A stretch of 64,000 bases of DNA. Source: a virus. A program made the translations under genes and the position numbers. Location of the stretch: positions 47,991 to 111,990 of IMG/VR virus record IMGVR_UViG_3300047160_006886; one strand, written 5' to 3'. Below are positions 32,247 to 54,309 of this stretch, piece by piece (positions within the stretch are counted from its first letter, which is position 1; each line of letters starts with the position of its first letter). The notes under the pieces were generated by a model. That model was given only the letters and a program-made list of their open reading frames with translations. It made no database searches and was not told where the DNA came from.

Positions 32247-33080
32247 TCATGAGGAAACTCCCCCCGATCTCGATTCCTCGATAGTTCTCTTTTCCCCTTC
32301 CCCTCTTCCAAGGACTATCCTCTCCGGCTGGAACTGATCCTGCCCCTGCTGCCGCCGCTGATGCCTCTCCGACCATATCTGAGCGACCTGCCTGAGTTTC
32401 CCCTCCCTCCCCTCCGGCACCGATCCGTCAAGTCGCTGAGTAGTTCTCCCCATCCAATTCTCACCTGCAGGGCCGATGTGGAGGCACTCCCACGAAGGAC
32501 GCAGCTTTAGGGCCGGCGGCCACTTCCGCTGGAAGAAGGAGTCGGCCCCGCCGGCGTGCGTCCAGTCGATCTCGTGCCAGGGCGGCGGACCGAGCCGGGG
32601 ATCGGAGGTGTGGAAGATCTGCGAGTAGCCCGCCCACTCGGCGACGTTGCGGTGGATACCGAACTGCTGCCACAGCTTTGGATCGTCGAGCACATCTGGC
32701 CTAGCAAACTCGACCGGGCACATCCGCCGTAGGGGTGAGAGAAGCATGCCGGGGCAGAAGTGCTCGGGCCAGCTGATCTCCTTCGGCCAGACCACGTCGC
32801 AGTCCATGTTGCAGATCCAACCTGTCCTTCCCATCCGGTCAAGCGCCCACTCCAGGGCGCGCCACTTATTAAAGATGGCTCCGTCCTGGTAGAAGAGGTC
32901 GGTGACGAGGCAATGAAGTCCGTCCTTCCCTCCCCAGTCGTACATCATGGTAACCGGATCATCAGGAGCCGTGACCACCCACGCCTCCTTGAAGTGGTGC
33001 CGGTTCCTGGGCAGGGTTACCCCCAGGATGTCGGCGAAGTCCACACAGACCATGATCGCTCGCAAGTCTTCAGGCACCAT
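32247..33080 (-). CDS. GT-A fold glycosyltransferase-like protein
   Basis: CVDFADIL..FNKW..WICNMDCDV (DxD)..GYSQIF. Confidence 0.7.
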   Translation of the reverse strand: MVPEDLRAIMVCVDFADILGVTLPRNRHHFKEAWVVTAPDDPVTMMYDWGGKDGLHCLVTDLFYQDGAIFNKWRALEWALDRMGRTGWICNMDCDVVWPKEISWPEHFCPGMLLSPLRRMCPVEFARPDVLDDPKLWQQFGIHRNVAEWAGYSQIFHTSDPRLGPPPWHEIDWTHAGGADSFFQRKWPPALKLRPSWECLHIGPAGENWMGRTTQRLDGSVPEGREGKLRQVAQIWSERHQRRQQGQDQFQPERIVLGRGEGEKRTIEESRSGGVSS

Positions 33081-33424
33081 CTCTCACTCCTCACAATCCA
33101 GCATCTCGCAGAAGTCGTCGATGGACACCGTCGGCGGACCTTCCATGCTGATCAGCATCTCGACGGGGAACACGAACATGCCCTCACCCTCCTTCCGCTT
33201 CCTCGTCTCCGGCTCACGCCGGCTTCCATTCCACTTCCCAAAACCGCCAGCACTCGGCACAGCGCCTGAGCACCTTCACGAAATACACGCGGTCAAAAGT
33301 GGTCGATCTTGGCATCGACTTGGGGAGGATCGCGGAATTTCTCGCCGCAATAGATGCAGCGATCAGGCACGCCGATGGGCAGCGTGACCTTGCGGCCAAG
33401 AGGGGTGTAGACGGTGAGCATGGG

Positions 33425-33715
33425 TTATGGCCGGTTCGCTTTTCTCCAAACATCCATATCCGCAGCGCAGTTGATAGCCTCTATGCTCTTTTCTGAGTTG
33501 AGGCCCAGTAGTGGCTTTCCACTGGCACGAAGCGCATCAATCGCTTCTTCGATAACAGGCAAAGCATGATCTGCCTTTCCCGCCCGCAGATAGCGCCAGA
33601 GCCGAATAAGATGAGGCGCGATTGGGTCACGCGCCAGCAGCGTAAACATCGGTTCGTCTGGTTCTGCAAAGCCGATGCAATCATACTTACCTGGATTCAA
33701 CTTCGTTCCCATCAT
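33425..33715 (-). CDS. Conserved phage protein (low GC)
   Basis: NPGKYDC..DEPMFTLLARDP. Confidence 0.6.
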   Translation of the reverse strand: MMGTKLNPGKYDCIGFAEPDEPMFTLLARDPIAPHLIRLWRYLRAGKADHALPVIEEAIDALRASGKPLLGLNSEKSIEAINCAADMDVWRKANRP

Positions 33716-33770
33716 CTCTCCTAAAAAATCCCTGGTCCATGCGGCACGGGCCGGCGCATCGCACGCCCGC

Positions 33771-34127
33771 TCAGCCGGGTAGGCCCTTCGGTAACTGCTC
33801 ATCCTTTACCTCCTGATATCCACTATCAGCCGCCTCCTTTATGATCCCGATCACTTCCTTGCAGGTCTCGCACGGCCCCGACACCGCCGAGCAGCGGGAG
33901 CACGCCTTGCGGTAGCTCAGGATCAGGGCCCGCAGCTTCCTGTTCTCGACGACCTCCTTGGCAAAGGCCCGCCGCAATTCCCGGCACTCATCGACGAGAT
34001 GCTGCCACTGGCTGGTGAAGATCGAGCCGGGCTGGAGGGCGACCACATGCTTCTGCACTTCCCCGTCCTCCTCTCGGAACTCCGCCTTGTCCTTGTACTC
34101 TCCCTGGATGTCAACCTGATTGACCAT
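33771..34127 (-). CDS. Hypothetical protein
   Basis: Coiled coil and CxxC pair. Confidence 0.5.
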   Translation of the reverse strand: MVNQVDIQGEYKDKAEFREEDGEVQKHVVALQPGSIFTSQWQHLVDECRELRRAFAKEVVENRKLRALILSYRKACSRCSAVSGPCETCKEVIGIIKEAADSGYQEVKDEQLPKGLPG

Positions 34128-34419: not shown

Positions 34420-34435
34420 AATCCACCTCTTCCGA

Positions 34436-35779: not shown

Positions 35780-36078
35780 TTGCTCGCATTCTGTAAGTAC
35801 TTAGTCATCATGTCCAGCCGTTGTATTCATGTCTTACTTCCTCTCGCGCTCGGTCAGTCCCCTTTGATACCCTCTTATATAGCCGCGATAGTATGGCGTA
35901 TCCGCGTCCCCGTCTATAGCTCCACCCCTCAGTCCGTCGCTGTAACCATCTCTCTCGCCGATCCTCTCCTGTGCCGCTTCATCTCTCCGTGTCCATGCGT
36001 CAAAGTCTCCTGGTTGCATTTCGTCCTCCTTCACTTTGAAGAATTCTGCAAGTACCTAGTCATCATGTCCAACCGCTG
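35776..36078. repeat. Diverged 48-bp direct repeat (35776-35823 and 36031-36078)
   Basis: Both copies encode QRLDMMT(K/R)YLQN(A/S)SK* on the minus strand. Confidence 0.85.
35834..36034 (-). CDS. Small inserted protein with GYxxG repeats
   Basis: Lies between the direct repeats; lower GC. Confidence 0.5.
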   Translation of the reverse strand: MKEDEMQPGDFDAWTRRDEAAQERIGERDGYSDGLRGGAIDGDADTPYYRGYIRGYQRGLTERERK

Positions 36079-37110
36079 CTCCTGTACCTGGCTCCGTTCG
36101 GTCACGAGCTGCAAGGGGCGGCGCTTGTCCTTGAGCCGGTAGACATCCTTGTGAGTCGCCGAGACCTGCTCGTGCTCGTTGGGGTCCTTCGACTGAGCCA
36201 GCTGCCCGTAGCCGCGAAGAGGGACGCCGCATGAATGGCAGTGCTGGCGGACCTGATTGGCGAACATCCCCATATCCCACTTCCACCAGTGATCGAGCTG
36301 GCTGCCAGGACGGCTGATGAACTCCAGATCGACTCCGGTATCCGGGTAGTCCGGCTCGTGCTGATGGAGGAGGGCCTGAGCCATCGCTACTTCGCAGAAA
36401 TAAGCCCGCAGCTGGCCCCGGAAGACGCCGATGCCCGCAGACCAGTGCTGATTGATGTCGCAGCGGGAGATGAGGTCCCACGCCTCTTCCTCGGCGTAGA
36501 CTTTTCCCTTGCCCTCGCAGCGATAGCATGGATCGCCGTCATCGACCCAAGTCATTCCCCTCCCGCTTCCTCCGCAGACTGGACAATCAGTGAGCAGCAC
36601 ATCCTTCATCGCGATCCAGGGCGGCGAGTGGCGGCTGTCCCGGTCGAGGCCGCAGGGCATAGACTCCGGCCAGTGAGTGCGGAAGAGGGTGTGGGCGACC
36701 AGATCCATGTGCACGTTGAGGTTCGAGACTCTGGGGTTGAAAGTCCTCCGCATCTCGACGGCCCGGTCAGCGGTGATGGGGTTGTTCGACCAGATGCCCC
36801 GCTGCTCATATGGCACCCAGGAATCGCGGAGCACCTTACATATCTCCATGAAGTGCTTCGAGACCGCAGGGTTGCCGCCGAAGACGCCTACGACACCGTA
36901 GTAGCCCTTGAGCGACTCGACGGCGAGAGCGAATTGCTCCGGCGTCATGTCCGACCTCGCACCGTTCTCGATCTGGCTCGCTTGCGTACATGAGAAACAC
37001 TGCTTGTCGCAACGGCTGGTGATCAAGATCTGTATCACCCCACGTCTGTATTTCCCTTCTCTTGGTGTTCCTGGAGCGACCATGCGACTCAAGCATTCTT
37101 GTTCGTTCAT
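36031..37110 (-). CDS. Radical SAM protein
   Basis: CDKQCFSC, FGGNP; internal CPVCGGSG..CYRCEGKG. Confidence 0.78.
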   Translation of the reverse strand: MNEQECLSRMVAPGTPREGKYRRGVIQILITSRCDKQCFSCTQASQIENGARSDMTPEQFALAVESLKGYYGVVGVFGGNPAVSKHFMEICKVLRDSWVPYEQRGIWSNNPITADRAVEMRRTFNPRVSNLNVHMDLVAHTLFRTHWPESMPCGLDRDSRHSPPWIAMKDVLLTDCPVCGGSGRGMTWVDDGDPCYRCEGKGKVYAEEEAWDLISRCDINQHWSAGIGVFRGQLRAYFCEVAMAQALLHQHEPDYPDTGVDLEFISRPGSQLDHWWKWDMGMFANQVRQHCHSCGVPLRGYGQLAQSKDPNEHEQVSATHKDVYRLKDKRRPLQLVTERSQVQEQRLDMMTRYLQNSSK

Positions 37111-37233
37111 GGAACTATCCTCCTGTGACGACCAGCCACACCAGCCACCAGAGCGTGAAAGCCGTGAGTGCCAGCGTCGGAACAACGAAGATGGTATAGA
37201 AAGAGTACTCCAGCACCTTGTCTAGTCTCTCGT

Positions 37234-38092: not shown

Positions 38093-38096
38093 CTGT

Positions 38097-38444
38097 TCAT
38101 CCCTTCTGCACTGGGACCGTCACTTCCGGCACTCCGTAGTGGAGAGAGCCGTCTCTGAGATCCAACCCGGACTTGACCAGGCCGTTTCGGATCTCGCGCA
38201 ACGTAGTCGGTCCGCAATTCCTGAACTGCTGCAGATCGGACACAGACATAGCAGTCAACTGCGCGAGGGACCTGATGTCCTGGTGGATGAGTATTTTCCT
38301 GGCCCGCACGGAGAGTGTCCTCGCAAAGTCGATGAACGACTGATCAGCCGGTTCAGACGGCAGCTTCTCAAGCATCGAGTCGGCGAGTCTCAGTGCTGTT
38401 GCAGCCTCTTCGAGGAGGCTGGCCAAGCGGAGAAACTGATTCAT
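38097..38444 (-). CDS. RNA polymerase alpha-CTD-like protein
   Basis: LSVRARKIL..I.SLAQL..DL..FRNCGPTTLREI..GL.L. Confidence 0.75.
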   Translation of the reverse strand: MNQFLRLASLLEEAATALRLADSMLEKLPSEPADQSFIDFARTLSVRARKILIHQDIRSLAQLTAMSVSDLQQFRNCGPTTLREIRNGLVKSGLDLRDGSLHYGVPEVTVPVQKG

Positions 38445-39055
38445 CTCTTCACCATGTAGAAGGACCAGGGTTCAGGAGGATTGACTGACATCTCCGGCAC
38501 GAGGAAGACCTCGATCCGCCAAGGGTCGATGAGGGAGTTCGCCAACCGAGCTACGGCGATCTGCACATTGGCGGCGATCCGCGACGAGGAGTTGGTGTAG
38601 TCGTGGCCGGCCAGGATGCCGCCGGGCTTGACCTTCTTCCACCATTCGCAGACGTCGAAGCAGACCTCCTCCAACCTGTGGGAGCCGTCGACATAGACGA
38701 ACGCCAGCGATCCATCCTGGAAGTGCTTGATGGCCTTCCGGCTGGTCATGCACATGAACCCGACCATGTCGTGACCGTCGATCTGCTTGTGCTGATGGAG
38801 CACCCGCCTGGCTTCGCTCATGTCCTCCTGCCGCTGCTCGGCCGTCCTCGTGCAGATGGCATCATCGTGCTCGTCGTAGTCGGTCAGGTACGGATCAATG
38901 CAGAAGAGCGGTTTCGGACTCCAGCGCTCCAGCAGCCACGAGGCGAACTCGCCGCGATGGGTGCCGATCTCGACTCCCGGTTCGCCGGGGTACTTGAGGC
39001 GGAGGTACTCCCCGAACTGCCTGCGGCCGATGAACTCACCTTGACGGATCAACAC
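38441..39055 (-). CDS. Methyltransf_24-like O-methyltransferase
   Basis: GVEIGTHRG..FVYVDGSH..GGILAGHDY. Confidence 0.85.
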   Translation of the reverse strand: MLIRQGEFIGRRQFGEYLRLKYPGEPGVEIGTHRGEFASWLLERWSPKPLFCIDPYLTDYDEHDDAICTRTAEQRQEDMSEARRVLHQHKQIDGHDMVGFMCMTSRKAIKHFQDGSLAFVYVDGSHRLEEVCFDVCEWWKKVKPGGILAGHDYTNSSSRIAANVQIAVARLANSLIDPWRIEVFLVPEMSVNPPEPWSFYMVKR

Positions 39056-39569
39056 CTTGGAAGTCCTTTCTGGCTTGCTCTTCGCCGATCTTCCTCATCT
39101 CATCGACTCGCTCGATGCTCATCTGCTCCGGCTCGATTCCCTTGACGCCGACCATCCAGCCAGGCGGCAGCGGGATGAGTCCCGGCGACTTGAGGTCGAC
39201 TTCATATGGCCACTCGGCTCCCCACTGAGCCTTGACGACAGCGATCTCCACGTCGGTCTGCGGACGCCAGAGGTGGAGGCAGGTCGGATAGTTGTTGATC
39301 CAGGTCGCCCTGGGCGGGTGCAGCTGCATCACTGTCTCATCATCCCGGAAGAACAGCTCCTTGACGAAGCACATTATCTCCCAGCTCGGACAGTGGCCGG
39401 TGAACCGGTGCAGCGAGACGCTGACGTGGTCCCAGCCGCCGCCGTCGCTGACAATAACTCCCAGTTCCTGCTTGTCAGGACCGAACGGGACCATGAAGGA
39501 GCCGCTGTTGGTCCGTGGCGGACCGGCGATCCGGTAGCGTTCAGCTCTGAGGTTCGGAGTGTTTCTCAT
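39036..39569 (-). CDS. Conserved phage protein
   Basis: GWDHVSVS..PSWEIM..VKELFF..QLHPP..CLHLWRP. Confidence 0.7.
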   Translation of the reverse strand: MRNTPNLRAERYRIAGPPRTNSGSFMVPFGPDKQELGVIVSDGGGWDHVSVSLHRFTGHCPSWEIMCFVKELFFRDDETVMQLHPPRATWINNYPTCLHLWRPQTDVEIAVVKAQWGAEWPYEVDLKSPGLIPLPPGWMVGVKGIEPEQMSIERVDEMRKIGEEQARKDFQGVDPSR

Positions 39570-40174
39570 TGGGGTCTCTCCGGGATGGTTTCGTGAAGGT
39601 ACCAGTCGTTGATTAAGTCGCCCAGGTAATCCAGGAGCAGATAGCCGTGACTCCGCATCAGGTGATGGACCGCGTCCTTCTTGTGGCTGACACCATTGTG
39701 TTCGATGGCTGCCAGGCCGAACTTCCAGCGGTCGAAGTCATGGGCCGAGAGGATCTCGAACTCCGAGCCTTCGGTGTCGAGGCAGAGGAAGTGGATCAAT
39801 GACGGAGCGGCGTGCTCTTCGAGGAGCCGGGGCAGGGTGATGGATCTCTTGATGCTGTCGGTGTGGAGCAGTCCGCTGCGGTTCCACTTGTCGGCGAAGC
39901 AGATCGGGATGCCCGACAGTTCGATGCCTTCTCCGTCCATCTCCGACCAAGGCACCGCCTGCTCGCAGTGCCAGAGTGGTCGGTCATCGAGCTGACATCT
40001 CCGCGACTGAGTCAGGCCCAGGTAAGCCCGCGACGGCTCGACACAGATACCGTCCCAGCCGGCCTTCTCCAGCTCCAGGGTCTGCGAGTCGCCGACGCCG
40101 TCGTGGGCACCGGCCTCGACAAAGAAGCCCTTGGGCCATTGGGTCAACAGCCAGGACAGGGTCTCAGGTTTCAT
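39566..40174 (-). CDS. FkbM-family methyltransferase
   Basis: FFVEAGAHDG..GWDGICVEP..LDTEGSE..IEHN. Confidence 0.88.
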   Translation of the reverse strand: MKPETLSWLLTQWPKGFFVEAGAHDGVGDSQTLELEKAGWDGICVEPSRAYLGLTQSRRCQLDDRPLWHCEQAVPWSEMDGEGIELSGIPICFADKWNRSGLLHTDSIKRSITLPRLLEEHAAPSLIHFLCLDTEGSEFEILSAHDFDRWKFGLAAIEHNGVSHKKDAVHHLMRSHGYLLLDYLGDLINDWYLHETIPERPQ

Positions 40175-40177
40175 CGC

Positions 40178-40459
40178 TCACCAACCGTTCCAGAAGCGGA
40201 TGATCTTGACGTCCGGGTCGAGCTTGGTCAGATCCACCTCGAACCCTGATGATGCGTTGCCTTGATACTTGTTGACAGCCGCATTTTTCTCAATCTCCAC
40301 TCGAACGCCGGACTCGTCCGGACCGCAATACTCGAAGAACTTCTCCACCCCATCCGGCAGCGGCAATCCAGCTGCCACGCAAGAATCCCAGACCGCTTTC
40401 ATCTTCCGCCACTTCTCATCCGGTGGCTTGAATCCGCAGACATGTGTCGACATGCTCAT
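40178..40459 (-). CDS. Conserved phage hypothetical protein
   Basis: Coupled ORF. Confidence 0.6.
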   Translation of the reverse strand: MSMSTHVCGFKPPDEKWRKMKAVWDSCVAAGLPLPDGVEKFFEYCGPDESGVRVEIEKNAAVNKYQGNASSGFEVDLTKLDPDVKIIRFWNGW

Positions 40460-41256
40460 GGCATTTCTCCGTACACCCTCATCTTGGGTCTCTCGCGCTG
40501 ATACGCCGCCAGCTTCTCGGTCCAGAATGCCCCCGTCACTTCGCCGGTCTCCTTGACCAGCTTCGAGACCATCGTGCCGTCCATTGGATTCCAATGTCCG
40601 CAGATGCGGCAGAGCACTTTCGCTTGTGCCATCATCGCATCCCAGGTCACGTCCTTGAGATGCATGATGCCGATGTCATGACCGGCCACCCTTGCCACTG
40701 CCGCTCCGGCTCCGTCCAAAAAATACCCGTTGCGTGTTAATCCCAAACCACAGCAGCGGATGCCGAAGATGCCGCAGGGCTCAAGTTCGCCGACGTTGGG
40801 GTCTCTGTCCACAGGGGTGATGCGGAAGTTGTTGAACCATGGCGGCTGCTCGCCCTTGGTCTTGGTCTCGGCGTGGAGGGAGATGTTCAGTTCCTTGAGC
40901 CAGTCGCGGAACTCCGCCGACCTGCCCCGGCCGTTGGTCAACACCTGGAGGAAGACCTTCGGATATCGCTGACGGTACTTGACCAGCAGGCCGATCAGGC
41001 CGGCGAAGTTGGGATGCAGAGTCGGCTCGCCGCCTAAGAAGCGTATCCGCTCCCACTCCCAGTCCAGAGCGAAGGACTCATCGACGAACCGCTCGACCTG
41101 CTCATAAGTCATGTTCGGCATCCAGGTCTGCGGTAGGTCTGAAAATCTGTCGCAAGCGAAGCAGGAGAGATCGCACCTCGTATTTATCTCAAGCTCTATG
41201 TGCTTAAATCTCTCTGCTGAGTCGCCCCAAGGAGTCAATGTTGTCAGAGGGATCAT
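40456..41256 (-). CDS. Radical SAM protein
   Basis: CDLSCFAC, LGGEPTLHP, LTNG. Confidence 0.85.
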   Translation of the reverse strand: MIPLTTLTPWGDSAERFKHIELEINTRCDLSCFACDRFSDLPQTWMPNMTYEQVERFVDESFALDWEWERIRFLGGEPTLHPNFAGLIGLLVKYRQRYPKVFLQVLTNGRGRSAEFRDWLKELNISLHAETKTKGEQPPWFNNFRITPVDRDPNVGELEPCGIFGIRCCGLGLTRNGYFLDGAGAAVARVAGHDIGIMHLKDVTWDAMMAQAKVLCRICGHWNPMDGTMVSKLVKETGEVTGAFWTEKLAAYQRERPKMRVYGEMP

Positions 41257-41266
41257 GGTGATGTCC

Positions 41267-41725
41267 TCAGTTCTTGGCCACGTGCCAGAAGGCCGGCTTG
41301 CCGAGAGCGATGGCCCAGTTCGCCGTCCAACAGGCTCCGCTCTTGACATGAACGGGCCTCTTCGGTTCTTTGTTAATGCAGTGGTAGCATTCCTTGAACC
41401 TCATTCCCTTGAAGTCGCTGGGCAGTCGGTCGACGCAAATGACATGGATCTCGTCGCAGTTCTCGGCGATCTGGATGTTCCGCTCACGGAAACCAGGGCT
41501 CCAGATCAAGTTCTTAGGAGGGAAGATCAGCGTCTTGAGTCCCGCCTTCTTCGCCTCCTCTTCGGCCCAGATATCAACGCCGCCGAGGTGGCAGTGACCG
41601 CTGACGATGATGCGACCGGGAACGAGCAGGTTGCGGATGAGGACCAGGGCACGCTCCTCACCCTCTGGTGTGAACTTCGCCTCCTCGTTGCCGACGATGG
41701 CTACTCGCTTCGTGCAGGGCATCAT
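41267..41725 (-). CDS. SLOG/YpsA-like nucleotide-binding protein
   Basis: VAIVG..IVSG..GGVDIWAE..RNIQIAE.CD. Confidence 0.7.
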   Translation of the reverse strand: MMPCTKRVAIVGNEEAKFTPEGEERALVLIRNLLVPGRIIVSGHCHLGGVDIWAEEEAKKAGLKTLIFPPKNLIWSPGFRERNIQIAENCDEIHVICVDRLPSDFKGMRFKECYHCINKEPKRPVHVKSGACWTANWAIALGKPAFWHVAKN

Positions 41726-41939: not shown

Positions 41940-42353
41940 TCAGTACGCCTTCCCGTGCTTGTGCGGTCGGGTCCGGTTGTACTCCATCTTGTCGAGGATG
42001 GCCCGGCCGAGATCGATCTCCATCTTACCGCAGAGGTCCATGATGCGGATCACGGCGTCAGCCAGTTCGATGGCGATGCCTTCGGGCTTCTCGCATGCGC
42101 CTTGGGTCCGAGTAGCGGACACGCGATTGCCGATCTTATCCGTCCACCACATCATTGCTTCTTGGCCGAACGGACCTGGATTCCTGTGAATCTCCAGAGC
42201 CTCCGACAACTCGGAGTGAATGAGGGCGATCTTCTCGGCGAAGTTCCAGTTGTACTCCCACGGCCAGAAGCCCTTGCCGATGGCCCATGAGTGGATCTCG
42301 GAGCAAAGAGCGTTGATCGCTTCCACCATCCCGGTCTCGGTCACGCTATGCAT
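41940..42353 (-). CDS. MazG-like NTP pyrophosphohydrolase
   Basis: IHSELSEALE..ELADAVIRIMD..KMEYN.TRP. Confidence 0.8.
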   Translation of the reverse strand: MHSVTETGMVEAINALCSEIHSWAIGKGFWPWEYNWNFAEKIALIHSELSEALEIHRNPGPFGQEAMMWWTDKIGNRVSATRTQGACEKPEGIAIELADAVIRIMDLCGKMEIDLGRAILDKMEYNRTRPHKHGKAY

Positions 42354-45059: not shown

Positions 45060-45131
45060 GATCTTTATTCTAACCCCAGATCAGGAAAAACTCCGAAAGA
45101 AAAAATCCCGGTGAAGAACCGAGAAAGCAAA

Positions 45132-45237: not shown

Positions 45238-46218
45238 TCAACCGCCGCCGATGCGGATCGCCGTCAGCTTGAGTCGCGGAGCGGTCCCGAAGCCGGCTGA
45301 GCCGTGGCCGTAGAAGAAGGTCGTGCCGTCGTGCTGAGCGACCAGGCGGTCCGAGTTGCCGTCGGGGTAGGTGATCAGCGCTTCGACGTCATTAAGGATC
45401 TCGACCTGCCCCGGTACCTCCGGGACGTGCCGACGGGTCGCTGTCATATCCTCGAAGATGCGGAGGTAGGAAGAGACCATACTGCCCGACATCAGCTGCC
45501 ACTGGCCGACGAACTTCCGCTTGCCGAGACCGCCGGTGATGGTCTGGGGATTGTCGCGAAGGAGCGATAGAGCGTCAAAACCCTCACCACGGAAACCCAT
45601 CGCCTGCGGTTGAGGCGAGTGGCCGATGCCGGTGATGGCCGTCTCGACGCCGACGTGCTGCACCAGGGTCGGGTTGTGCACATACTCCTTCCAGCCGATC
45701 TTCTGATAGGCGGTGACGATTCCGCCGTCGAGAGCGGTCCTGGCTCGGTCGTCGGTCCGCTGCGGCTTAGCCCACATCGACTCAGCCGAGAGCAGCTTGC
45801 GGGCTGCCTCGTTCGAAAAGACCAGGGCGACCGCCCCGAAGCCGAGCTGGTTCGACTCGTGCCAGCCGACTCTCCGCCCGCCTTGAGTGTCGCAGAGCTT
45901 CTGGTTGTCGGGGAAGGTATAGAGGTTACAGTACCCGAGATGCGGATAGGGGATTGCTTCGAGGTAGTCCCGCAAGTTGCGATAGGTGACGAAGTCGTCC
46001 TGGAACATGGCAAAGCGGTCGGCGTTCGGATTGCGGAACCACAGTTCGGCGAAGGTGACGAACCAGTTGCCGACCGTGTAGAGCGGTGGGTTGTGGTCCT
46101 CGCCGTCGATGGAGACGACGGGATCGGGGAAGCCGGCCCCCTTGATCGCCGCCAGCGTCTGCTGGAGCAGGTTATCCTTCCGCTTGACGCAACTCGTGAC
46201 TCCGCAAGCCCATTTCAT
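45238..46218 (-). CDS. GT-A fold glycosyltransferase-like protein
   Basis: MFQDD..GAVALVF..PTLVQHVG. Confidence 0.65.
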   Translation of the reverse strand: MKWACGVTSCVKRKDNLLQQTLAAIKGAGFPDPVVSIDGEDHNPPLYTVGNWFVTFAELWFRNPNADRFAMFQDDFVTYRNLRDYLEAIPYPHLGYCNLYTFPDNQKLCDTQGGRRVGWHESNQLGFGAVALVFSNEAARKLLSAESMWAKPQRTDDRARTALDGGIVTAYQKIGWKEYVHNPTLVQHVGVETAITGIGHSPQPQAMGFRGEGFDALSLLRDNPQTITGGLGKRKFVGQWQLMSGSMVSSYLRIFEDMTATRRHVPEVPGQVEILNDVEALITYPDGNSDRLVAQHDGTTFFYGHGSAGFGTAPRLKLTAIRIGGG

Positions 46219-47060
46219 TTTGGCAACGCCTCTCTGGTGACGGCGACGTAGTCCTGCCGCCAGTGCGGACGCAGTTCGTAAGTGCCGGCCTTGACCGGCA
46301 GCTTGCCGACGTCACGGTAGTAGGCATCGTGAGGTCGGACGCTGGAGAGGTGGTGAGGTTGGACGCCCCAGCGGTAGATGTAAGCCCAGTCGGCGAAGGG
46401 CATCATTCTCTCCGGCTCGGTCCAGGGATACTTACCATCCCTCGGATCGAGGCAGCCGTTGGTCTTGCACTGCTCGATCAGCTTGCGGTCGAAGATGGAG
46501 TCCTGCGATCCAGACGTCGCCGGGTAGCCGCCGACCTTCTCCCACGCCGATCTCTTGAAGATGCCGGCGTGGTGGCGGATGCCGATGTTGTGTCGGTAGA
46601 AGATACCCCGGCCAGCAGGAGGCACCTCCCAGTAGATGACCTGCGGCGGCTTCCAGTAGTCGTCAAAATCGTCGAGCGGAGCATCTCCTCTTATAACGAC
46701 CCACCGACCATCCTTGCACGTCCATCTGTCGGAGGCATCAATCATCTTCACCGCCTGGCTGATCCGCCAGGGCAGCGAGATGTCATCATCCTCCCACGGA
46801 CAGATCAGGTCGCCGCGAGAGACAGCAATGCCGTAGTTGTACTTCTCGCCAAGCGACGAGACCCTCGGCCACTTCATCTGGACCGTCACTCCGGAAGGCG
46901 GGATCAGTTCCTGACCGGGAGCATCGCTGAGCACGATTAGCTCTCTCCGGTCAGCCGGGTAGTCCTGGCGGAGAAAAGACTCGACAGCCTCCTCGACCAA
47001 CCACTGGTAGTCGGGGCAGCGGTTGTAGGTAGGGCAGATGCAGGAGACGAAGGGCATCAT
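46215..47060 (-). CDS. Glycosyltransferase family 2
   Basis: VSCICPTYNR..QDYP..ELIV..GDLI..WEDDD. Confidence 0.88.
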   Translation of the reverse strand: MMPFVSCICPTYNRCPDYQWLVEEAVESFLRQDYPADRRELIVLSDAPGQELIPPSGVTVQMKWPRVSSLGEKYNYGIAVSRGDLICPWEDDDISLPWRISQAVKMIDASDRWTCKDGRWVVIRGDAPLDDFDDYWKPPQVIYWEVPPAGRGIFYRHNIGIRHHAGIFKRSAWEKVGGYPATSGSQDSIFDRKLIEQCKTNGCLDPRDGKYPWTEPERMMPFADWAYIYRWGVQPHHLSSVRPHDAYYRDVGKLPVKAGTYELRPHWRQDYVAVTREALPK

Positions 47061-47688: not shown

Positions 47689-47811
47689 GCCGGACTCCCT
47701 TCCCCGTTAGTACGAGCGACCGGAATGGCCGGTGGAGTCGGTGGGATTGATGGTGTTCGCGGTGCTCTCGCTCTTGCCATGTCTAGTCTCCTTCCAAGGA
47801 TAAGGGTAAGA

Positions 47812-48543
47812 TCAGGACTTTCTCCAATAACAGGCCGACCAATCGACCTTGTGGATCTCGTCGTCGATGCCGCGCTGCCTGCGGTAGTCAGCCACGGCGG
47901 CGTGCGGTCCTTTGTGGCTGTAGAAGTCGTCGCAGATGATGAAACCACCCGGCGACAGCTTGGGATAAAGAGCGACCAGAGAGTCCATCGTGCTCTCGTA
48001 CATGTCCCCGTCGAGGCGGACCAACGAGAACCGGCCGGCGTCGATCTTCGAGAGGGTGTCCTTGAACCAGCCCTCGACGAAGCGGACGCGGCTGATGGGA
48101 ACGCTGAAGCGAGCGAAGTTCTTGACGACCTCGTCCCTGGAGACGGCCAAGTAAGGTATCGTGTGATGGTTGTCACCGGTGTCGACCGGATAGCGAAGCG
48201 GGTTCGGCGGTGGCAGACCCTTGAAGGAGTCGCAGACCCAAACCTTCCGCCTCTCGTCTCCCCAAACTTCGAGGATCGCGGTCATGAAGATGGCGGCTCC
48301 GCCCCGCCACACCCCGGCCTCGACAAAGTCGCCCGGCACGTTCCAGCGGAGCACTTCCTTCGCACAACGCTGGATGTTGTCGAGCCGCTTGTGACCGATC
48401 ATGGTCACCGCGTATGGGGGCCAGTCGAGGCCGACCTCCCGCTTCTCCGGATCGAACGGCGGAGATTCCTTGTCGCCGTAGATGGAGTTGGTCAGGGTCC
48501 ACTTCAGCAGATCGAGATAGAGGTCGGTCGGTTTTGCGTTCAT
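47812..48543 (-). CDS. TylF/MycF/NovP-family sugar O-methyltransferase
   Basis: VPGDFVEAGVWRGG..DSFKGLP..GWFKDTL..RLDGDMYEST..GGFIICDD. Confidence 0.93.
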   Translation of the reverse strand: MNAKPTDLYLDLLKWTLTNSIYGDKESPPFDPEKREVGLDWPPYAVTMIGHKRLDNIQRCAKEVLRWNVPGDFVEAGVWRGGAAIFMTAILEVWGDERRKVWVCDSFKGLPPPNPLRYPVDTGDNHHTIPYLAVSRDEVVKNFARFSVPISRVRFVEGWFKDTLSKIDAGRFSLVRLDGDMYESTMDSLVALYPKLSPGGFIICDDFYSHKGPHAAVADYRRQRGIDDEIHKVDWSACYWRKS

Positions 48544-48552
48544 AATGTCATT

Positions 48553-50604
48553 CTAATCCAGCTTCGGCCACTTTCCGAGTGGGCAGTCCTGGTCCCGCCA
48601 GGCCGACTTGCCCTCGACGACCTTCATGGTCCTCTGGTCGACCGAATCGGCCAGGTAGCAACCGCACTCGGTGCAGCGGTCATTGGAGCGACTGGGGCAG
48701 AGGTCGCAGATCTGGAGCCGTGCCTCGATCTCCTCCGGTGAGCAGATCTTCGAGCCGCCGGCGAGGTGAGTCGCCTTGGCCACTCCATAGTTCCAGACCA
48801 TCCGGCCCCAGCCGGGGAGGGGCTTCTTGTCCTCCTCATCCCTGGAGAGGATCAGGAGCCCGTTGTTGTTGTGGTAGTGCCTGATCACCGACCACTGAGG
48901 ATACTCGCGGACGAACTTGCGGACGCCAGCGAGCATGCCGGGCTGGCCTCCCTCGCCCCGCTCGCCAAAGACGACAGTGCCGAGGAGGACGATCCAGCGA
49001 CGGACCTTCGAGTGATGTCTCTTCAGCTCGGCCAGGGTGTGAGCCTCGGTGTGGACGGTCTGGATGAAGAGCATGTCGGTCTCGTCGATGTCAGCAGTCA
49101 GCGACTCGCCGCGGCGGAACTCGACGTGGGTGCGGCCGGGGATCTCCTGCAGCCGCTCGATGGTCGGCTCGAAGATGTTGCTGTAGGAGATGAAGGTCTC
49201 CGGCTGACCGGCCAACAGAGCGACCGTGCTGACCGAGTGTCGCTTGCCGAACTCAGTGACATGCTTGCAGTTGGCGGCCATGTCGCGAAGGACCTGAGTA
49301 TGCTCGTTGAGATCACTGGGGGTTCGGAGGGCGACTTGCCAGAACTGCTCGAGGTCCCAGTTCCGCCAGGCCGTGTTCGGACAGCCGCTGCAACCACCGC
49401 CACTCGCAGCTGTACCAGCAGATGGACTGACCGCGACCGACTTGGGCCATTCCGGCGGATCGAGCGGGTTGTCGGCCAGCTCTTTCCACTCGTTCTCCGG
49501 CATCAAACGGGTGGCGACGAAGTGGTCGTAGATCGGCTGCAGATCCAGGCCCAGCTCGCCGTGGCCAATGACATAGTTGCGGACCTTCTGCCAGCGAGTT
49601 AGGGGATAGGGAACTCCTCCCGGCCGACCGAAGCGATGGAGCCAGGGAGCGTTGGGGATGCAGAGATTCTTTCCTCCATTGCGGCGGATCTTCTCGTGGA
49701 TGTACAGCTCCTCGCCGCCGAAGCCGGAGAACTTCTTGTTGAAGCCGCCGATCTCTTTCCAGACCTCCTTGCGGCAGGAGAAGAAGCCCAGTCCGTTGCC
49801 GGGGATCTCGATGGGTCGGTCGTAGTCGGGTCGTTCCAGGTTCCGCCGAAAGCCCAGCGCTTCGAGAACCCGCTCGTGACCGTTCCACTCGATGTTCTGG
49901 GGAAACTCGAAGCCGCACTCAGGACACCTATCGTACATGACCTGCGGATAAGTCAGGGAGCCGAAGCCGCAGACCCCCATCGAGGTCTGGCCGACGGTGG
50001 CCTCGGTCGGCGGGGCCTTCGGCGGCACCTGGATGCAGTCGAGGTAGAAGCCGCACCGGCATATCTCGGCCGTGCCCCAGATGCCCCACATCTCGCTCCG
50101 CCAGACCGGGCTGAAGTGGGTGTTGTAGACTTTGAGACCATCCATCAGCAGCGGACCGGTCAGCATGTTCTTAGTGTCTGGGTGCTCATCGTAATACTTG
50201 CGGATGGCGGCCAGGGAGCCTGGAGGTAAGAGGATGTGCCCGTCGATGCAGATGACATAATCACCAGCGGCCTCATCGAAGACCTTCTGGCGAGGAGCCG
50301 AGGTGCCCTTGGGCTGCTCCAGGGGGATGTAGCGAGCCGAGTGAACGTCGCCTCGGACATAGCCGCCGACCATCGCTCCGCCCTGCCGGGGATCTGGCTG
50401 CGGGAACATCTGCATCAGAGCGATAGTGTGCGGGTTGACGATCCGCTGACCGTCCTGGTTGAGGATGGGGTTGTTATCGACCACCAGGATCTCGGTGTCG
50501 GCCATGCACTCCGAATGGTAGAGCCTCAGCGCCTGAATGGTGAACCAAGCCCCGTCGAAGTCGTTGAAGGTCGCGAAGCCTATGGTGTACTTCGGTTTGG
50601 ACAT
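48553..50604 (-). CDS. Fusion: GT2 glycosyltransferase, methyltransferase-like domain, C-terminal Cys domain
   Basis: EILVVDNNP..CIDGH..GFGGEE..H.F; SDLNEH..TEFG; RL.IC..CP..RC..CGC..CPLGKW. Confidence 0.78.
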   Translation of the reverse strand: MSKPKYTIGFATFNDFDGAWFTIQALRLYHSECMADTEILVVDNNPILNQDGQRIVNPHTIALMQMFPQPDPRQGGAMVGGYVRGDVHSARYIPLEQPKGTSAPRQKVFDEAAGDYVICIDGHILLPPGSLAAIRKYYDEHPDTKNMLTGPLLMDGLKVYNTHFSPVWRSEMWGIWGTAEICRCGFYLDCIQVPPKAPPTEATVGQTSMGVCGFGSLTYPQVMYDRCPECGFEFPQNIEWNGHERVLEALGFRRNLERPDYDRPIEIPGNGLGFFSCRKEVWKEIGGFNKKFSGFGGEELYIHEKIRRNGGKNLCIPNAPWLHRFGRPGGVPYPLTRWQKVRNYVIGHGELGLDLQPIYDHFVATRLMPENEWKELADNPLDPPEWPKSVAVSPSAGTAASGGGCSGCPNTAWRNWDLEQFWQVALRTPSDLNEHTQVLRDMAANCKHVTEFGKRHSVSTVALLAGQPETFISYSNIFEPTIERLQEIPGRTHVEFRRGESLTADIDETDMLFIQTVHTEAHTLAELKRHHSKVRRWIVLLGTVVFGERGEGGQPGMLAGVRKFVREYPQWSVIRHYHNNNGLLILSRDEEDKKPLPGWGRMVWNYGVAKATHLAGGSKICSPEEIEARLQICDLCPSRSNDRCTECGCYLADSVDQRTMKVVEGKSAWRDQDCPLGKWPKLD

Positions 50605-50676
50605 CTCTCGATCTCCCATCTTTCTCTTTGCCAAAGGGTTAAAAGTCTCTTCCCTCTTCCTCTCCGTTGCTCATCA

Positions 50677-53600
50677 TCAACCGCAGCCACAGCAGACGCA
50701 CTCCGAGCAGCCTCCATTCGACGGCGTGGTCTGACCGCCGGTGCAGTCGACGCAGAAGGTTCCGTGGACCGGACAGCCGCCGTCGGCATTGATGAGCGCC
50801 CAGGAGCCATTGTTCCAGCAGTACTTGCACGGCAATGGTCGGGTGCAGTTGACCGTCGTGCCGGAGCACTGGACGCAGTTGGTGCACTGCTGAGCCGGGC
50901 AGGCCGGGTTGGCGGGCGGACTGTTCGGTGGCCCGGCGCAGATGACCGCATTGCCAACGCAGCAATTAGTCTGCTGAGTCCACTGACCGGGAGAGCCGGG
51001 CGTCCAGGCGTAGCAGCAGATCCCCGTGCCGGCTCCGGTCGTGGTCGTGCAGGTCGTCGTGGTGGTCGCCGGACAGGCCGTTGTCGTGGTTGTGGTAGTC
51101 GTGGTGGTGGTCGTGCATGGAGGGATGCAGCTCGTCCACTTAAGCATGTGGCAGCAATCGCCGGCCGGAGGATCGCCTCCGGGGGAGGCACAGGGGCAGT
51201 TGAGCCCGGTGCAGCGGTTGTCGATAACCAACCAGAATCCCGACCCCCAGATGCCGGTGACGCAGTCGGAGCCGGGCTGCGGCTGGAACTGCCAGAGACA
51301 GCCGCCGGTCGAGGGGTTGGGCGTGGTCGTGGTCGCCGTGGTCGGGCAGGACGAACAGGCTATCGTGTAGGTAAAATCGTCGGGCGAGTGGAGACAGGGA
51401 TTAGTGACCGTCGCAGCACAGCACTGGCAGCTGGTCGGCGGTGGACCGCAGGGGCAGCCGTTGGTAGTCAGAGTGCAATTTGTCTCGCCAGGGACGCAGG
51501 AGTAGACGCAATAACCGCTGCCGGCCATGCCGGTGCCCCCGCAGCCGGGAGAGGCCGTCGTCGTGGTCGGACACTGAGTGGTCGTGGTGGTCGTGCCGCA
51601 GTCGGTGTGGGCGATCGCACAGGGCGAGTTGCAGTCGAGGTTCTGACTCGGCGGTGGGCAGGAACAGGGACTGTGGTTGCAAGGGTCGCTGACGAGCACC
51701 CAGGTCGAGTTCTGGCATTGCCATGAGCAGGTACCGGAGCAAGGGGTTGTCGTGGTCGTGGCGATGCATGGAGTCTGAGCCGTCTCGCCAGCGCTCTGAC
51801 CGTTGTAAGAGACGTTGGCACACTGGCAGATCGAGCCGCAGGTGTTGTGAGTGATCGACCAGGACGAACCGTTCCAGGTCCAGATGCAAGCCGCTCCGCA
51901 GCCGGTAGTCGATGAAGTCGTGCAGACGCAAGAGGTCGTCGTCGTGTGGCTGGTCGAGGTCGTCGTGGTGTGCGAAGTCGTCGTTCCCGTCGTCCCGGTC
52001 GTTCCAGAAGTCGTAGTGGCACAGTAACAGAGCGTCGAGGTGACCGCACAGGGGTCGGTGCAGGGAACGGTCGGAGCATCACAGAAGCAATTGAGTCCGC
52101 AGAAGTCGGAGATGCAGCCACTCCCTCCGCCTGGAGGAGAGATGCCGATCCAGCCAATGGCCGTACAGGCCCAGAGACAGATGCCGCCGCAGGAAGGCGG
52201 CAGGGTCGTCCCAGTCCCGGTCGTGAGGGAAGTCGTCGTGGCACAGTTGGTGATTGCCGTTTGACCGCAGTTGGCATGACCGCAGAGGCTGTTCGGTGGC
52301 GGCAGGCAAGCCTGACAGAGTGAGCAGTCACCGCTGAGCCCTTCCCAACCGAAGACCGTGCAGAGCCAGGTGCAACCCGAGCAACCGGGAGGACCACTTC
52401 CGCCGCCTCCACCCCCGCCTCCTCCCCCACCGCCACCACCGCCACCGCCGCCGGCAGTCGTCGTCGTCGCCGTAGTCGCCGTGCCGGTGGTCGGGCACTG
52501 AGTGGTCGTCGTCGTGCCGGTCGTCGTCGAGGGGCAGCCGCAGCAGCAGGGCTGAATGGTGACCGGGGTCTTCGAGCAGAACCCCTGAGTGGTCTCGCCG
52601 TCGGTCGAGCCGCAGTAAGCGGGGACGGAGCAAGAGCAGTTATTGCCGCAGCAGTTATTCTGGGTCCGATTCCACTTGCACTGAGCCGCACTCCAGGTCC
52701 ACTGACAAGTGCCGACGCAAGGGTTGGGATGGTGCGGATCGGGAGTGGTGGCGCTGCAAGGAAGGGTCGCCTGATCGCCGGCGTTGACTCCGATGGTGGT
52801 CGGAAAGACGCAGTCGCAGCTCTCGGTGCAGAGGTCGTCGGTCTGCGTCCAGTTGGTCCCGTTCCAGGTGAAGACGCAGACCCCGCACGCCGGGGTCGAA
52901 GTCGTCTGAGTGGTCGTCGAAGTGCCCTGGCTGGTGCAGGGCGGACAATTGCCGTCGTCGTTCTCATCGTTGACCACCTCCCAGACGGTCCCGATGTAGA
53001 TGGGACAGCTGGTGGTCGTCGTAGTCGAGGTGCAGGGAACCGCCGTCGTGGTGGTGCAGGAGGTCGTGGTCGAGACTGAAGTCGTCGTCGTTCCGGTCGA
53101 GGTCGTTGTGCCGGTCGTGGTGGTCGTCGGCGTCGTGCCGGCACAGGTCGTCGTGGTGCTGGTCGTCGTCGAGGAAGTGCCGGTGGTCGTGGTCAGGGTC
53201 GTCGAGGTGCAGTTGGTGAAGCCGATCTGACCGACGCAGCCGACGTAGGCCGGCTGAGCGCAGTCGCAAGCGGGGGTGTTGCAGGGATCGTCTAGCTGCG
53301 ACCAGACCATCCCGTTGAAGGACCAGACGCAGGTGTCGACGCAGCCACTGCCGGGGTCGATGCAAGGAGTCTGGAGCTGGTCGTTGACGTTGACCCCGCC
53401 GCAGAGGGGGCGGACGCAGCCGCAGGTGCCCGAGCAGGTGTTCGAGACGAGGACCCAGTAGGTGCCATTCCACTGCCACTGGCAATTGCCGGATGGACAC
53501 TGGGTGGTCGTGGTCGGCTGACACGGCTCGGCGATGATCCTCCCGACCTCGTCGCCGATGACCAGGGGAGTGACGCAACCGCAGTTGCATCCGGGCGGAT

Positions 53601-54309
53601 CGGGCTGACCGGGAGGCGGACGGGTCGAAGTCGTGCAGTTCTGGTTGCAGCGGTTGGCCTGGAGGTTCCACTGCGTCCCGTCCCACTCGTATAAGCAGGT
53701 GCCGCAGGAGGGAGTGGTGTTGAGGAAGTACTGCTTGGCGGCATAGCGCTTGCCGACCGTCAGCTTCTGGTTGACGGCGACCCCCTTGACGTTCGCCTGA
53801 TTTACCACCTCGGTGACGCCGTCGAAGTCGACCAGGTCTCCGGTGTAGAGGCAGTTGCAATCGGGGCAGCCGGTGACCTTGAAGATCTGCCAGTTCGCGC
53901 TGACGATGGAGGCAATCCAGTTGCCGTACTTATCCCGCTCGATGAGTATCCAGGTACCGCCGGGGATGATCTGGCCAGTGACATTAAAGACGGGTGCGGG
54001 AGCGACGAAGGGCACGGCCGTAAGGGTGCCGACCAGATTGCCCGAGCCATCGTCGTCGACCGAGAGGATCTGCCAGAGGTTGCATTGAGCCGAGGTGACG
54101 GTATTGGTAGATGGATCGACCGCCGGGATGCCGCCCGACGGGGTCTGAGCGACGTAGACTTCGGGAGTCAGGATCTCCTGGTCGTCGATACCGGTGTCGC
54201 CGGCTCGGTTGACGGTGTTCTTGTCGAAGTTGCTGACCCACTGGACGATCTTGAGGATCGACTCCCGGTCCTTCTCGTTCAGGAAGTAGAGATTGCCGAA
54301 GTCGGCCAT
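50677..54309 (-). CDS. Giant Cys/Thr-rich repetitive putative virion fibre/adhesin
   Basis: About 12 CxWxWNGxxW..C modules, poly-Thr linkers, poly-Gly hinge; at the end of the tail genes. Confidence 0.7.
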   Translation of the reverse strand: MADFGNLYFLNEKDRESILKIVQWVSNFDKNTVNRAGDTGIDDQEILTPEVYVAQTPSGGIPAVDPSTNTVTSAQCNLWQILSVDDDGSGNLVGTLTAVPFVAPAPVFNVTGQIIPGGTWILIERDKYGNWIASIVSANWQIFKVTGCPDCNCLYTGDLVDFDGVTEVVNQANVKGVAVNQKLTVGKRYAAKQYFLNTTPSCGTCLYEWDGTQWNLQANRCNQNCTTSTRPPPGQPDPPGCNCGCVTPLVIGDEVGRIIAEPCQPTTTTQCPSGNCQWQWNGTYWVLVSNTCSGTCGCVRPLCGGVNVNDQLQTPCIDPGSGCVDTCVWSFNGMVWSQLDDPCNTPACDCAQPAYVGCVGQIGFTNCTSTTLTTTTGTSSTTTSTTTTCAGTTPTTTTTGTTTSTGTTTTSVSTTTSCTTTTAVPCTSTTTTTSCPIYIGTVWEVVNDENDDGNCPPCTSQGTSTTTQTTSTPACGVCVFTWNGTNWTQTDDLCTESCDCVFPTTIGVNAGDQATLPCSATTPDPHHPNPCVGTCQWTWSAAQCKWNRTQNNCCGNNCSCSVPAYCGSTDGETTQGFCSKTPVTIQPCCCGCPSTTTGTTTTTQCPTTGTATTATTTTAGGGGGGGGGGGGGGGGGGSGPPGCSGCTWLCTVFGWEGLSGDCSLCQACLPPPNSLCGHANCGQTAITNCATTTSLTTGTGTTLPPSCGGICLWACTAIGWIGISPPGGGSGCISDFCGLNCFCDAPTVPCTDPCAVTSTLCYCATTTSGTTGTTGTTTSHTTTTSTSHTTTTSCVCTTSSTTGCGAACIWTWNGSSWSITHNTCGSICQCANVSYNGQSAGETAQTPCIATTTTTPCSGTCSWQCQNSTWVLVSDPCNHSPCSCPPPSQNLDCNSPCAIAHTDCGTTTTTTQCPTTTTASPGCGGTGMAGSGYCVYSCVPGETNCTLTTNGCPCGPPPTSCQCCAATVTNPCLHSPDDFTYTIACSSCPTTATTTTPNPSTGGCLWQFQPQPGSDCVTGIWGSGFWLVIDNRCTGLNCPCASPGGDPPAGDCCHMLKWTSCIPPCTTTTTTTTTTTTACPATTTTTCTTTTGAGTGICCYAWTPGSPGQWTQQTNCCVGNAVICAGPPNSPPANPACPAQQCTNCVQCSGTTVNCTRPLPCKYCWNNGSWALINADGGCPVHGTFCVDCTGGQTTPSNGGCSECVCCGCG

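Follow-up and report, generated by a model that had tools for sequence, protein, structure and literature searches.

The 64,000-nucleotide (nt) window analysed here, by which we mean the whole stretch of DNA, covers positions 47,991 to 111,990 of the viral record IMGVR_UViG_3300047160_006886 and is the final 64 kb of this 111,990-bp record (~60% guanine plus cytosine (GC); CheckV completeness 93%). On the minus strand of the record, head genes are followed by tail genes and then by the block studied here (32247-54309). This block starts with the gene for a Cys- and Thr-rich protein of 1210 amino acids (aa) and continues with the gene for a three-domain fusion enzyme, further glycosyltransferase (GT) genes, and genes for methyltransferases (MTs) and radical S-adenosylmethionine (SAM) proteins. 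A sequence-only reading had described the block as a single system that builds a methylated glycan on the phage's own poly-Thr fibre. The open reading frames (ORFs) named in that reading exist and are all co-oriented on the minus strand (Table 1). In our choice of genes across the genome, ORFs with a third-position GC content below 0.60 were dropped. The phage is distant from all deposited phages: when its tail region was compared with them by DNA similarity, no match was found.

Table 1. Features of the studied block and of the tail genes preceding it, in the order of the minus strand
Feature	Position	Strand	Evidence or remark
Tape-measure-like protein, 665 aa	56731..58728	-	PHROG phrog_3336 'tail length tape measure protein', E 9.9e-5, weak match
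Conserved tail-region protein, 418 aa	55475..56731	-	In relatives two genes upstream of the Cys/Thr protein
Conserved protein, 199 aa	54340..54939	-	Immediately 5' of the Cys/Thr gene; homologues at the same position in 9 related loci
Cys/Thr-rich 'mucin-like' protein, 1210 aa, proposed acceptor	50677..54309	-	Composition, Ser/Thr runs, Cys modules
Three-domain enzyme, proposed initiating protein O-glycosyltransferase	48553..50604	-	GT-A + Methyltransf_24/CmcI-like + DUF6171
TylF-family O-methyltransferase, 243 aa, proposed sugar O-methylase	47812..48543	-	Pfam TylF, 305.4 bits
Protein inside the cassette, 149 aa	47239..47688	-	Sub-threshold tRNA-synt_2c match only, E 0.016
GT2 glycosyltransferase, proposed elongating enzyme	46215..47060	-	Glycos_transf_2, 26.2 bits (cut-off 23.3)
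Protein with GT-A/GT25-like N-terminal domain, 326 aa	45238..46218	-	ESM Atlas structure search
Terminator-like hairpin and T-run	45093..45124	-	In the gap after gene 45238
'DNA methyltransferase' (phrog_757), 192 aa	44293-44871	-	E 2.5e-53
HNH_3 endonuclease	43461-44174	-	49 bits; adjoins the phrog_757 gene
GT-B-like glycosyltransferase, 372 aa, phage-specific	42346..43464	-	ESM-Atlas features
Radical SAM protein	40456..41349	-	Radical_SAM, 32.2 bits (cut-off 29.5); CxxxCxxC
FkbM-family methyltransferase	39566..40174	-	Methyltransf_21, 49.2 bits
DUF7694 protein between the FkbM and Methyltransf_24 genes	39036-39569	-	90 bits
Methyltransf_24 methyltransferase	38441..39055	-	Pfam, 64.2 bits
RNA-polymerase alpha C-terminal-domain (CTD)-like protein, 115 aa	38097-38444	-	RNA_pol_A_CTD, 34.4 bits, above cut-off
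Radical-SAM-like protein with Zn-finger insert	36031..37185	-	Radical_SAM, 22.6 bits, below cut-off; CxxxCxxC
Protein with Methyltransf_24/CmcI similarity, 250 aa	34816..35568	-	19.6 (cut-off 26.3) and 17.3 bits, both sub-threshold
Member of a large family (at least 558 proteins), 277 aa	32247..33080	-	Family conservation; invariant D93-x-D95

A glycosyltransferase fusion beside a Cys/Thr-rich protein

The 1210-aa protein contains 133 Cys and 237 Thr residues, 15 Ser/Thr runs of at least five residues and a run of 18 glycines, and its composition is unique among the ~138 proteins of the genome. A non-repeat N-terminal domain (residues 1-200) is followed by at least eight Cys modules of ~50 aa, which are placed between poly-Thr/Ser tracts. 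Copies were detected with a hidden Markov model (HMM) of the module at residues 202-237, 271-318, 323-371, 475-522, 531-581, 643-693, 804-853 and 857-909. The 18-glycine run (residues 620-637; 52399-52452, minus strand) is coded by an imperfect 9-15-nt tandem repeat and is a possible hinge as well as a possible slippage site for length variation. The protein had no match in Pfam or PHROG, and neither a signal peptide nor a transmembrane (TM)-like segment was found in it. Its N-terminal 135 aa are weakly conserved in the corresponding proteins of the four nearest loci.

The fusion gene is the first gene 3' of the gene for this protein. Its ORF (48553-50634) codes for 693 aa, and the gene call of the public collection starts at the ATG at 50604, giving 683 aa. 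Three domains are encoded: a GT-A domain resembling polypeptide N-acetylgalactosaminyltransferases (GalNAc-transferases; ppGalNAc-Ts) at 49450-50595, a Methyltransf_24/CmcI-like domain at ~48835-49362 and a DUF6171 Cys ribbon at 48556-48807. In Pfam, the ORF matched Glycos_transf_2 (28.1 bits) and Glyco_transf_7C (25.3 bits). The family to which it belongs comprises more than 800 clusters, whose members carry PF00535, PF13578 (Methyltransf_24) or PF04989 (rhamnosyl-O-methyltransferase/CmcI), and PF19668 (DUF6171). It was through these members that the fused MT-like domain, already suspected in the sequence-only reading, could be assigned (PF13578/PF04989, 30-32 bits, above the cut-offs). No TM-like segment was found in the fusion enzyme. 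Since both the enzyme and the Cys/Thr protein lack such a segment, modification in the cytoplasm is possible.

We built an AlphaFold2 model of the fusion enzyme on 25 homologues (mean predicted local distance difference test score 84.7) and compared it with the PDB using Foldseek. Polypeptide GalNAc-transferases filled at least the first 50 places, with E-values down to 4e-15, and the GT-A catalytic domain of the model can be superimposed on solved ppGalNAc-Ts. According to the model, the GT domain is structurally closest to the mucin-type polypeptide O-GalNAc-transferases. The segments D131-x-H133 (D131-G-H133 here) and G304-F-G-G-E-E309 and the residue H333 are invariant in 25 of 25 homologues, which show 40-52% identity. 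In place of DxD, the enzyme carries the Mn2+-binding motif DxH, which is the motif of the GALNT enzymes (PMC4202792). When residues 260-400 were used in a phmmer search, GalNAc-Ts ranked top (best single-domain E-value 0.008, TgGalNAc-T3). In this alignment GFGGEE corresponds to WGGEN of the GalNAc-Ts, and H333 to the His in the downstream GHVF segment. The Gal/GalNAc-T motif (WGGENxE) is therefore present as a variant, with F for W and E for N. By analogy with GalNAc-T2, this His is taken to be the third Mn2+ ligand. A search of the PDB with the family profile reached GalNAc-T7 at an E-value of only 0.12, and the best match at the sequence level was the prophage wall-teichoic-acid transferase TarP (E 1.9e-6). 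Judging from modelled fold and motifs, the GT domain may act like a ppGalNAc-T; it is the conserved adjacency to a poly-Thr protein, described below, that would point to Ser/Thr residues of a polypeptide as the acceptor.

One relative of the fusion enzyme (P0060, on a 33-kb metagenome contig) has an Erv1/Alr sulfhydryl oxidase domain (51 bits) in place of DUF6171 and unites glycosyltransferase, methyltransferase-like and disulfide-forming domains in one polypeptide. Such a domain swap is expected if the client of the enzyme is a Cys-rich protein, and DUF6171 may possibly serve Cys chemistry as well. In the genome of the window phage, no gene for an Erv1/Alr disulfide oxidase was found.

The genomic surroundings of the fusion were analysed in two sets of loci. 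A protein-pattern scan of IMG/VR revealed at least 565 stretches encoding fusion relatives. The best 80 loci of these, together with one locus from an initial scan, made up the viral set, with flanks of up to 10 kb. For the genome set, one genome per GTDB species was searched, and 80 loci were kept from 301 matches. We counted a plus-strand ORF as a partner if it encoded 150 aa or more, of which Cys made up no less than 3.5% and Thr no less than 10%, and if its end fell in the interval from 1300 nt before to 200 nt after the enzyme start. Such a partner was present in all 67 viral loci with a full-length fusion and at least 1.5 kb of upstream sequence, and in 18 of the 22 genome loci with a full-length fusion. 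Overall, a partner ORF thus lies on the same strand and just 5' of the full-length fusion in 85 of 89 loci. By comparison, it was found in 2 of 42 genome loci that encode the GT domain only (Labrys, Bradyrhizobium and others), and the background among all other ORFs of the same loci was 0.5% (15/2855). As the contigs span 37-67% GC, the pairing is not a compositional artefact. The co-occurrence of the glycosyltransferase with Cys/Thr proteins across phages, which the sequence-only reading had named as a check, was thus strongly borne out. The pairing is near-obligate across more than 100 loci, and this genomic pattern strongly suggests a functional tie of the phage glycosyltransferase to the poly-Thr protein.

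The partner proteins are 400-2000 aa long and contain 4-13% Cys and 11-33% Thr. Nine of them were searched against Pfam and their N-terminal regions against PHROGs, in both cases without a match, and a search of the viral contigs for relatives of the N-terminal 230 aa of the partner confirmed none. In locus L002, a 90-aa mini-partner (9656-9928, plus strand) consists of a Thr/Pro tract and a single Cys module. It lies between a 552-aa tail-like protein, for which PHROGs gave weak Ig-like matches, and the glycosyltransferase. The main exceptions to the pairing are three fusion copies in one Schlesneria metagenome-assembled genome (MAG; loci L084, L085 and L086), which have no Cys/Thr ORF upstream.

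The HMM of the ~50-aa Cys module, seeded on the repeats of the window, matched 374 times, in 96 of the 129 partner proteins. The module reads C-x-G-x-C-x-W-x-W-x(5-8)-W-x6-C-x3-C-x-C-x2-P-x3-G-x3-C-x4-T-x-C in the consensus and has no counterpart in Pfam. A profile search of 1.84 billion representative proteins returned only 443, and all 150 listed matches hold at least two copies of the module, up to a maximum of 16. In three Planctomycete genomes with the fusion, the module is confined to the ORF beside it. Since the module is nearly confined to partner proteins, module and enzyme define one another.

Neighbouring tail genes, downstream genes and the distal stretch

Upstream of the pair, the gene order 175-aa protein, tape-measure-like protein, 418-aa protein, 199-aa protein and partner is kept in relatives (9-22 loci); homologues of the 175-, 418- and 199-aa proteins occupy their places in 16, 22 and 9 loci, respectively. 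The 175-aa family has one weak 'major tail protein' match, and a domain inserted in the 418-aa protein gave matches to PHROGs of virion, fibre and baseplate proteins (E 1e-7 to 1e-8). For the 199-aa protein, no Pfam or PHROG family was matched. By its weak match, the 665-aa tape-measure-like gene tentatively marks a tail module upstream of the cassette. In siphovirus tail modules, central fibre or tip proteins sit at such a position. From this gene order behind weakly identified tail genes, the Cys/Thr protein would be located in the virion.

Downstream, the TylF gene starts 9 nt 3' of the fusion gene. The TylF match, which upholds the earlier assignment, far exceeds the cut-off of 23 bits and covers positions 49-264 of the 264 positions of the profile (PF05711), as in a full-length member. 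The only match of the protein in the phage collection was an M. avium mtfC record (47% identity). In 42 of 81 viral loci, a homologue of the second GT2 enzyme (46215) lies within ~3.5 kb 3' of the fusion; homologues also occur in 18 genome loci. The protein at 45238-46218 had no match in sequence-family searches; residues 1-220 of its Atlas model gave TM-scores of 0.5-0.63 to clusters of GT25-like and nucleotide-diphospho-sugar transferases, and homologues are present in loci L057 and L063. We also surveyed 104 co-oriented ORFs within 4.2 kb 3' of the fusion in ~38 non-redundant loci. The commonest Pfam families were Glycos_transf_2 (15 ORFs), Methyltransf_24 (7), Sulfotransfer_2 (4) and MptE-like (4), and single cases of an epimerase/dehydratase, a GT-B enzyme, a radical SAM protein and an acetyltransferase were seen. 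The Sulfotransfer_2 genes (best E-value 3.7e-24) suggest that some relatives sulfate rather than methylate the glycan. Judged by these gene contents, a constant initiating pair seems to be followed by a changing set of glycan-tailoring genes.

The hairpin after gene 45238 is a possible 3' end of a tail-plus-glycosylation transcription unit. Since the hairpin scan was not enriched over shuffled sequences (11 found, 11.5 expected), the evidence for a terminator is weak. Because of the hairpin, and because TylF, FkbM and the radical SAM proteins have no counterparts in the 81 viral loci, we set the cassette to ~45238-54309. The proposal that the entire block from 32247 is one system therefore holds for the syntenic part from ~45238, but not for the distal part, which is mixed and includes HNH, DNA-MT-like, DUF7694 and alpha-CTD-like genes without an evident tie to glycans.

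We treat the distal stretch (32247-45059) as an accessory region specific to this phage; its methyltransferases and radical SAM enzymes need not act on the glycan, though they may. The phrog_757 protein has FSG...PPC...ENP motifs resembling those of a minimal C5-cytosine methyltransferase and no match to PF00145. The adjoining HNH gene was not selected by the third-position GC filter, as expected of a recent insertion. Four of the five genes proposed as glycosyltransferases (42346, 45238, 46215 and 48553) find support. That at 42346-43464 had no match in Pfam, NCBIfam or PDB sequences; its ESM-Atlas features resembled those of clusters of viral glycosyltransferases (scores 0.97-0.98), and one of these clusters is 91% PF13524. 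The fifth, at 32247-33080, was not confirmed as a glycosyltransferase, since Pfam, NCBIfam, PHROGs, phmmer, a PDB profile search and hhalign against a GT profile were all negative; the invariant DxD is the sole point in favour of a transferase. A MazG-like reading of 41940-42353, made by eye alone and without a match in Pfam, is not claimed.

The remaining assignments in this stretch were mixed as well. The FkbM enzyme was recovered by Pfam. Of the two proposed Methyltransf_24 enzymes, the one at 38441 was recognised, while the one at 34816 stayed below the cut-off. Likewise, the radical SAM protein at 40456 exceeded the cut-off (with far sub-threshold matches only in NCBIfam), whereas the one at 36031 did not, although it has the CxxxCxxC motif; it also shows a weak DnaJ_CXXCXGXG match. 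The Methyltransf_24 enzyme at 38441 has weak homologues in three related loci, and a link to the glycan is plausible because stand-alone Methyltransf_24 genes recur downstream of the fusion in relatives. For the 115-aa alpha-CTD-like protein, a role as a transcription factor or in decoying host activators is conceivable.

Proposed glycosylation of the Cys/Thr protein and competing explanations

Taken together, we consider it probable, at roughly 60%, that ~45238-54309 is a conserved phage cassette which O-glycosylates one phage protein. The 1210-aa protein would be made in the cytoplasm, without a signal peptide or TM segment, and its poly-Thr/Ser tracts would be glycosylated by the enzyme encoded directly downstream. 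The N-terminal domain of this enzyme would work like a eukaryotic polypeptide GalNAc-transferase, that is, as a Mn2+-dependent GT-A enzyme with DxH, the GGEE loop and the downstream His, and would move a host-made nucleotide sugar onto Thr/Ser hydroxyls. The GT2 enzyme (46215) and the GT25-like protein (45238) would then extend the glycan, and the fused Methyltransf_24/CmcI-like domain, the adjacent TylF protein, or both, would O-methylate its sugars. The glycosylated tracts could keep the small Cys-knotted or metal-binding modules apart as stiff spacers that resist proteases, and the outcome would be a beads-on-a-stalk fibre at the tail tip. In this scheme we infer the acceptor, the identity of the sugar, its methylation, and the virion location and structural role of the protein. 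The earlier proposal of a methylated glycan on the phage's own poly-Thr fibre is thus well backed in its link between glycosyltransferase and poly-Thr protein, but methylation and virion location are deduced; a methylated glycan is plausible from domain family and adjacency.

Several observations weigh against this scheme. The identity of the fusion enzyme to ppGalNAc-Ts is ~15% (14-19% in structural alignments), and Pfam found no Ricin_B_lectin domain in it, the place of the ricin-type lectin domain being taken by the MT-like domain and the DUF6171 Cys ribbon. For lack of this lectin domain, we describe the GT domain as ppGalNAc-T-like and do not file it as a member of GT27. The identity of the acceptor is read from gene adjacency, and four full-length fusions have no partner, the three in the Schlesneria MAG and one in an Actinomycetota MAG. 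In the MT-like domain of the window copy, Q525 replaces an Asp that is conserved in 23 of 25 homologues ((I/F)-D-T-x-H motif), so that this domain may be inactive; that the stand-alone TylF enzyme might compensate for it is speculation. TylF, FkbM and both radical SAM proteins were sought in the 81 related viral loci, and none was found. Finally, no genes for nucleotide-sugar synthesis were found in this genome.

Phage GT2 enzymes commonly alter host surface glycans, and the fusion enzyme and the following transferases might likewise act on host envelope glycans or lipid-linked sugars, for instance to mask receptors or to exclude superinfecting phages. The adjacency to the fibre gene would then reflect no more than a common site of action, the cell surface during adsorption. 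The match to TarP, a wall-teichoic-acid transferase, as the best PDB hit at the sequence level and the GT-only cellular homologues without a Cys/Thr neighbour fit this explanation. However, it leaves unexplained why the full-length fusion, and this form specifically, is paired with a Thr-rich protein almost without exception. In addition, peptide-directed GalNAc-Ts clearly lead the structural ranking, a TM segment for a membrane acceptor is missing, and the Erv1/Alr variant suggests a Cys-rich protein substrate. We therefore regard a host-envelope target as rather unlikely. Quite unlikely, too, is that the Cys/Thr protein is glycosylated but no part of the virion, being released at lysis or acting as an intracellular factor, with the preceding genes not being structural partners. 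The partner N-terminal domains indeed had no match among known families of tail and fibre proteins, the tail genes nearby are weakly assigned and the L002 partner has just 90 aa. Yet the gene order is conserved behind tail-like genes, the Cys/Thr protein has no signal peptide, and the terminator-like site lies only behind the cassette.

Fibre genes are often followed directly by genes for tail-fibre assembly proteins. The GT-like domain could accordingly be catalytically idle, or be a chaperone or assembly factor for the fibre, with the partner left unglycosylated, and the Asp lost from the MT-like domain of the window copy would agree with this. We think this improbable, since every motif for metal and donor binding in the GT domain is invariant among homologues of 40-52% identity, and more transferases and tailoring enzymes recur downstream. 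Most improbable of all, in our view, is that the transferases glycosylate phage DNA, with the DNA-MT-like protein at 44293 supplying the precursor. Its phrog_757 match and motifs speak for such a role, and phage systems that combine an MT, a TET enzyme and a GT are known (10.1101/2023.12.21.572611). Against it, genes for DNA hypermodification were sought in this 93%-complete genome and none was found, neither Tet_JBP nor a thymidylate-synthase-like hydroxymethylase (PF12851 and PF00303 without a match at E<=1 in the whole genome), PF00145, TGT/DpdA or QueC, in agreement with the sequence-only reading, which had seen no base-hydroxymethylase-type gene. Moreover, the conserved transferases sit in the tail module beside a protein, not beside DNA-metabolism genes.

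Relation to known systems and implications

The eukaryotic ppGalNAc-T/GALNT enzymes (CAZy GT27) start mucin-type O-glycosylation, and the phage enzyme shares the GT-A fold, as modelled, and the DxH motif with them. Besides the low identity and the different C-terminal domains described above, it differs in that it is encoded by phages of bacteria and is predicted to be soluble and cytoplasmic, whereas GT27 enzymes are type-II membrane proteins of the Golgi. In mycobacteriophages (Che8-type; Freeman et al. 2023), O-glycosylation of the phages' own structural proteins by phage glycosyltransferases in the host cytoplasm has been proposed or shown, with the C-termini of capsid and tail-tube subunits as acceptors (as summarised in PMC12619734). 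In contrast, the acceptor proposed here is a dedicated mucin-like protein always encoded beside the enzyme, which is of a GT27-like type and carries an MT-like domain as a fusion. When the fusion enzyme was compared by tblastn with 50,697 deposited phage records, no match was found.

A064R of chlorovirus PBCV-1 is a multidomain enzyme in which glycosyltransferase domains are joined to a sugar O-methyltransferase domain, and it serves to build a methylated glycan on a virion protein. This virus is, however, a eukaryotic giant virus with N-linked capsid glycans, the rhamnosyltransferase domains of A064R are unrelated to GT27, and a mucin-like acceptor is not known. The serine-rich repeat adhesins of Gram-positive bacteria are very long, fibre-like Ser/Thr-rich proteins that are O-glycosylated in the cytoplasm by GtfA/GtfB from the same locus. 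They differ from the phage system in being cellular, in their GT-B (GT4) enzymes, and in accessory Sec export, and they are not known to contain Cys modules. The TylF/NovP/MtfC enzymes known so far act on sugars of macrolides, aminocoumarins or glycopeptidolipids, which they methylate; if the substrate here is a glycan attached to a protein, it would be new for this family. Our literature search found nothing on GT27-like phage enzymes, DUF6171 or Cys/Thr-rich phage fibres.

Full-length copies in genome bins belong mostly to Planctomycetota (Schlesneria, Pirellulales, Planctomycetaceae, Thermogutta and Gemmataceae). The fusion occurs in only 3 of 301 sampled Planctomycetota genomes, as expected of a mobile element. 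Two cultured organisms are among the carriers: the full-length fusion enzyme is encoded in the chromosome of Bremerella volcania, and a partner protein in Thermostilla marina JCM19992. Among the genome loci, the window phage has its nearest relative in a 75-kb contig that was assigned to an 'archaeon' bin and is probably a mis-binned phage.

Tentatively, and with the odds still somewhat against it, we propose that tailed phages, many of them apparently infecting Planctomycetota, carry true mucin-type O-glycosylation, with an enzyme homologous to GT27 and a new kind of fibre as its substrate. If so, poly-Thr stalks, glycosylated and possibly methylated or sulfated, would carry small Cys modules in this fibre, in place of trimeric beta-helices or coiled coils. 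To our knowledge, only a few mycobacteriophages have been shown to date to glycosylate virion proteins, with other enzymes and acceptors. What is new here is hence the type of enzyme, the proposed dedicated acceptor and the Cys domain, and not phage virion glycosylation as such. If the proposal is true, phages would possess a second way to glycosylate their own proteins, far more widespread than the first, as well as fibres constructed on a new principle, and a new Cys-rich domain family would be established. It would also place GT27-type protein O-glycosylation in the prokaryotic virosphere, giving the enzymes that start animal mucin O-glycosylation relatives in prokaryotic viruses, and would bear on the origin of the eukaryotic mucin-glycosylation machinery.

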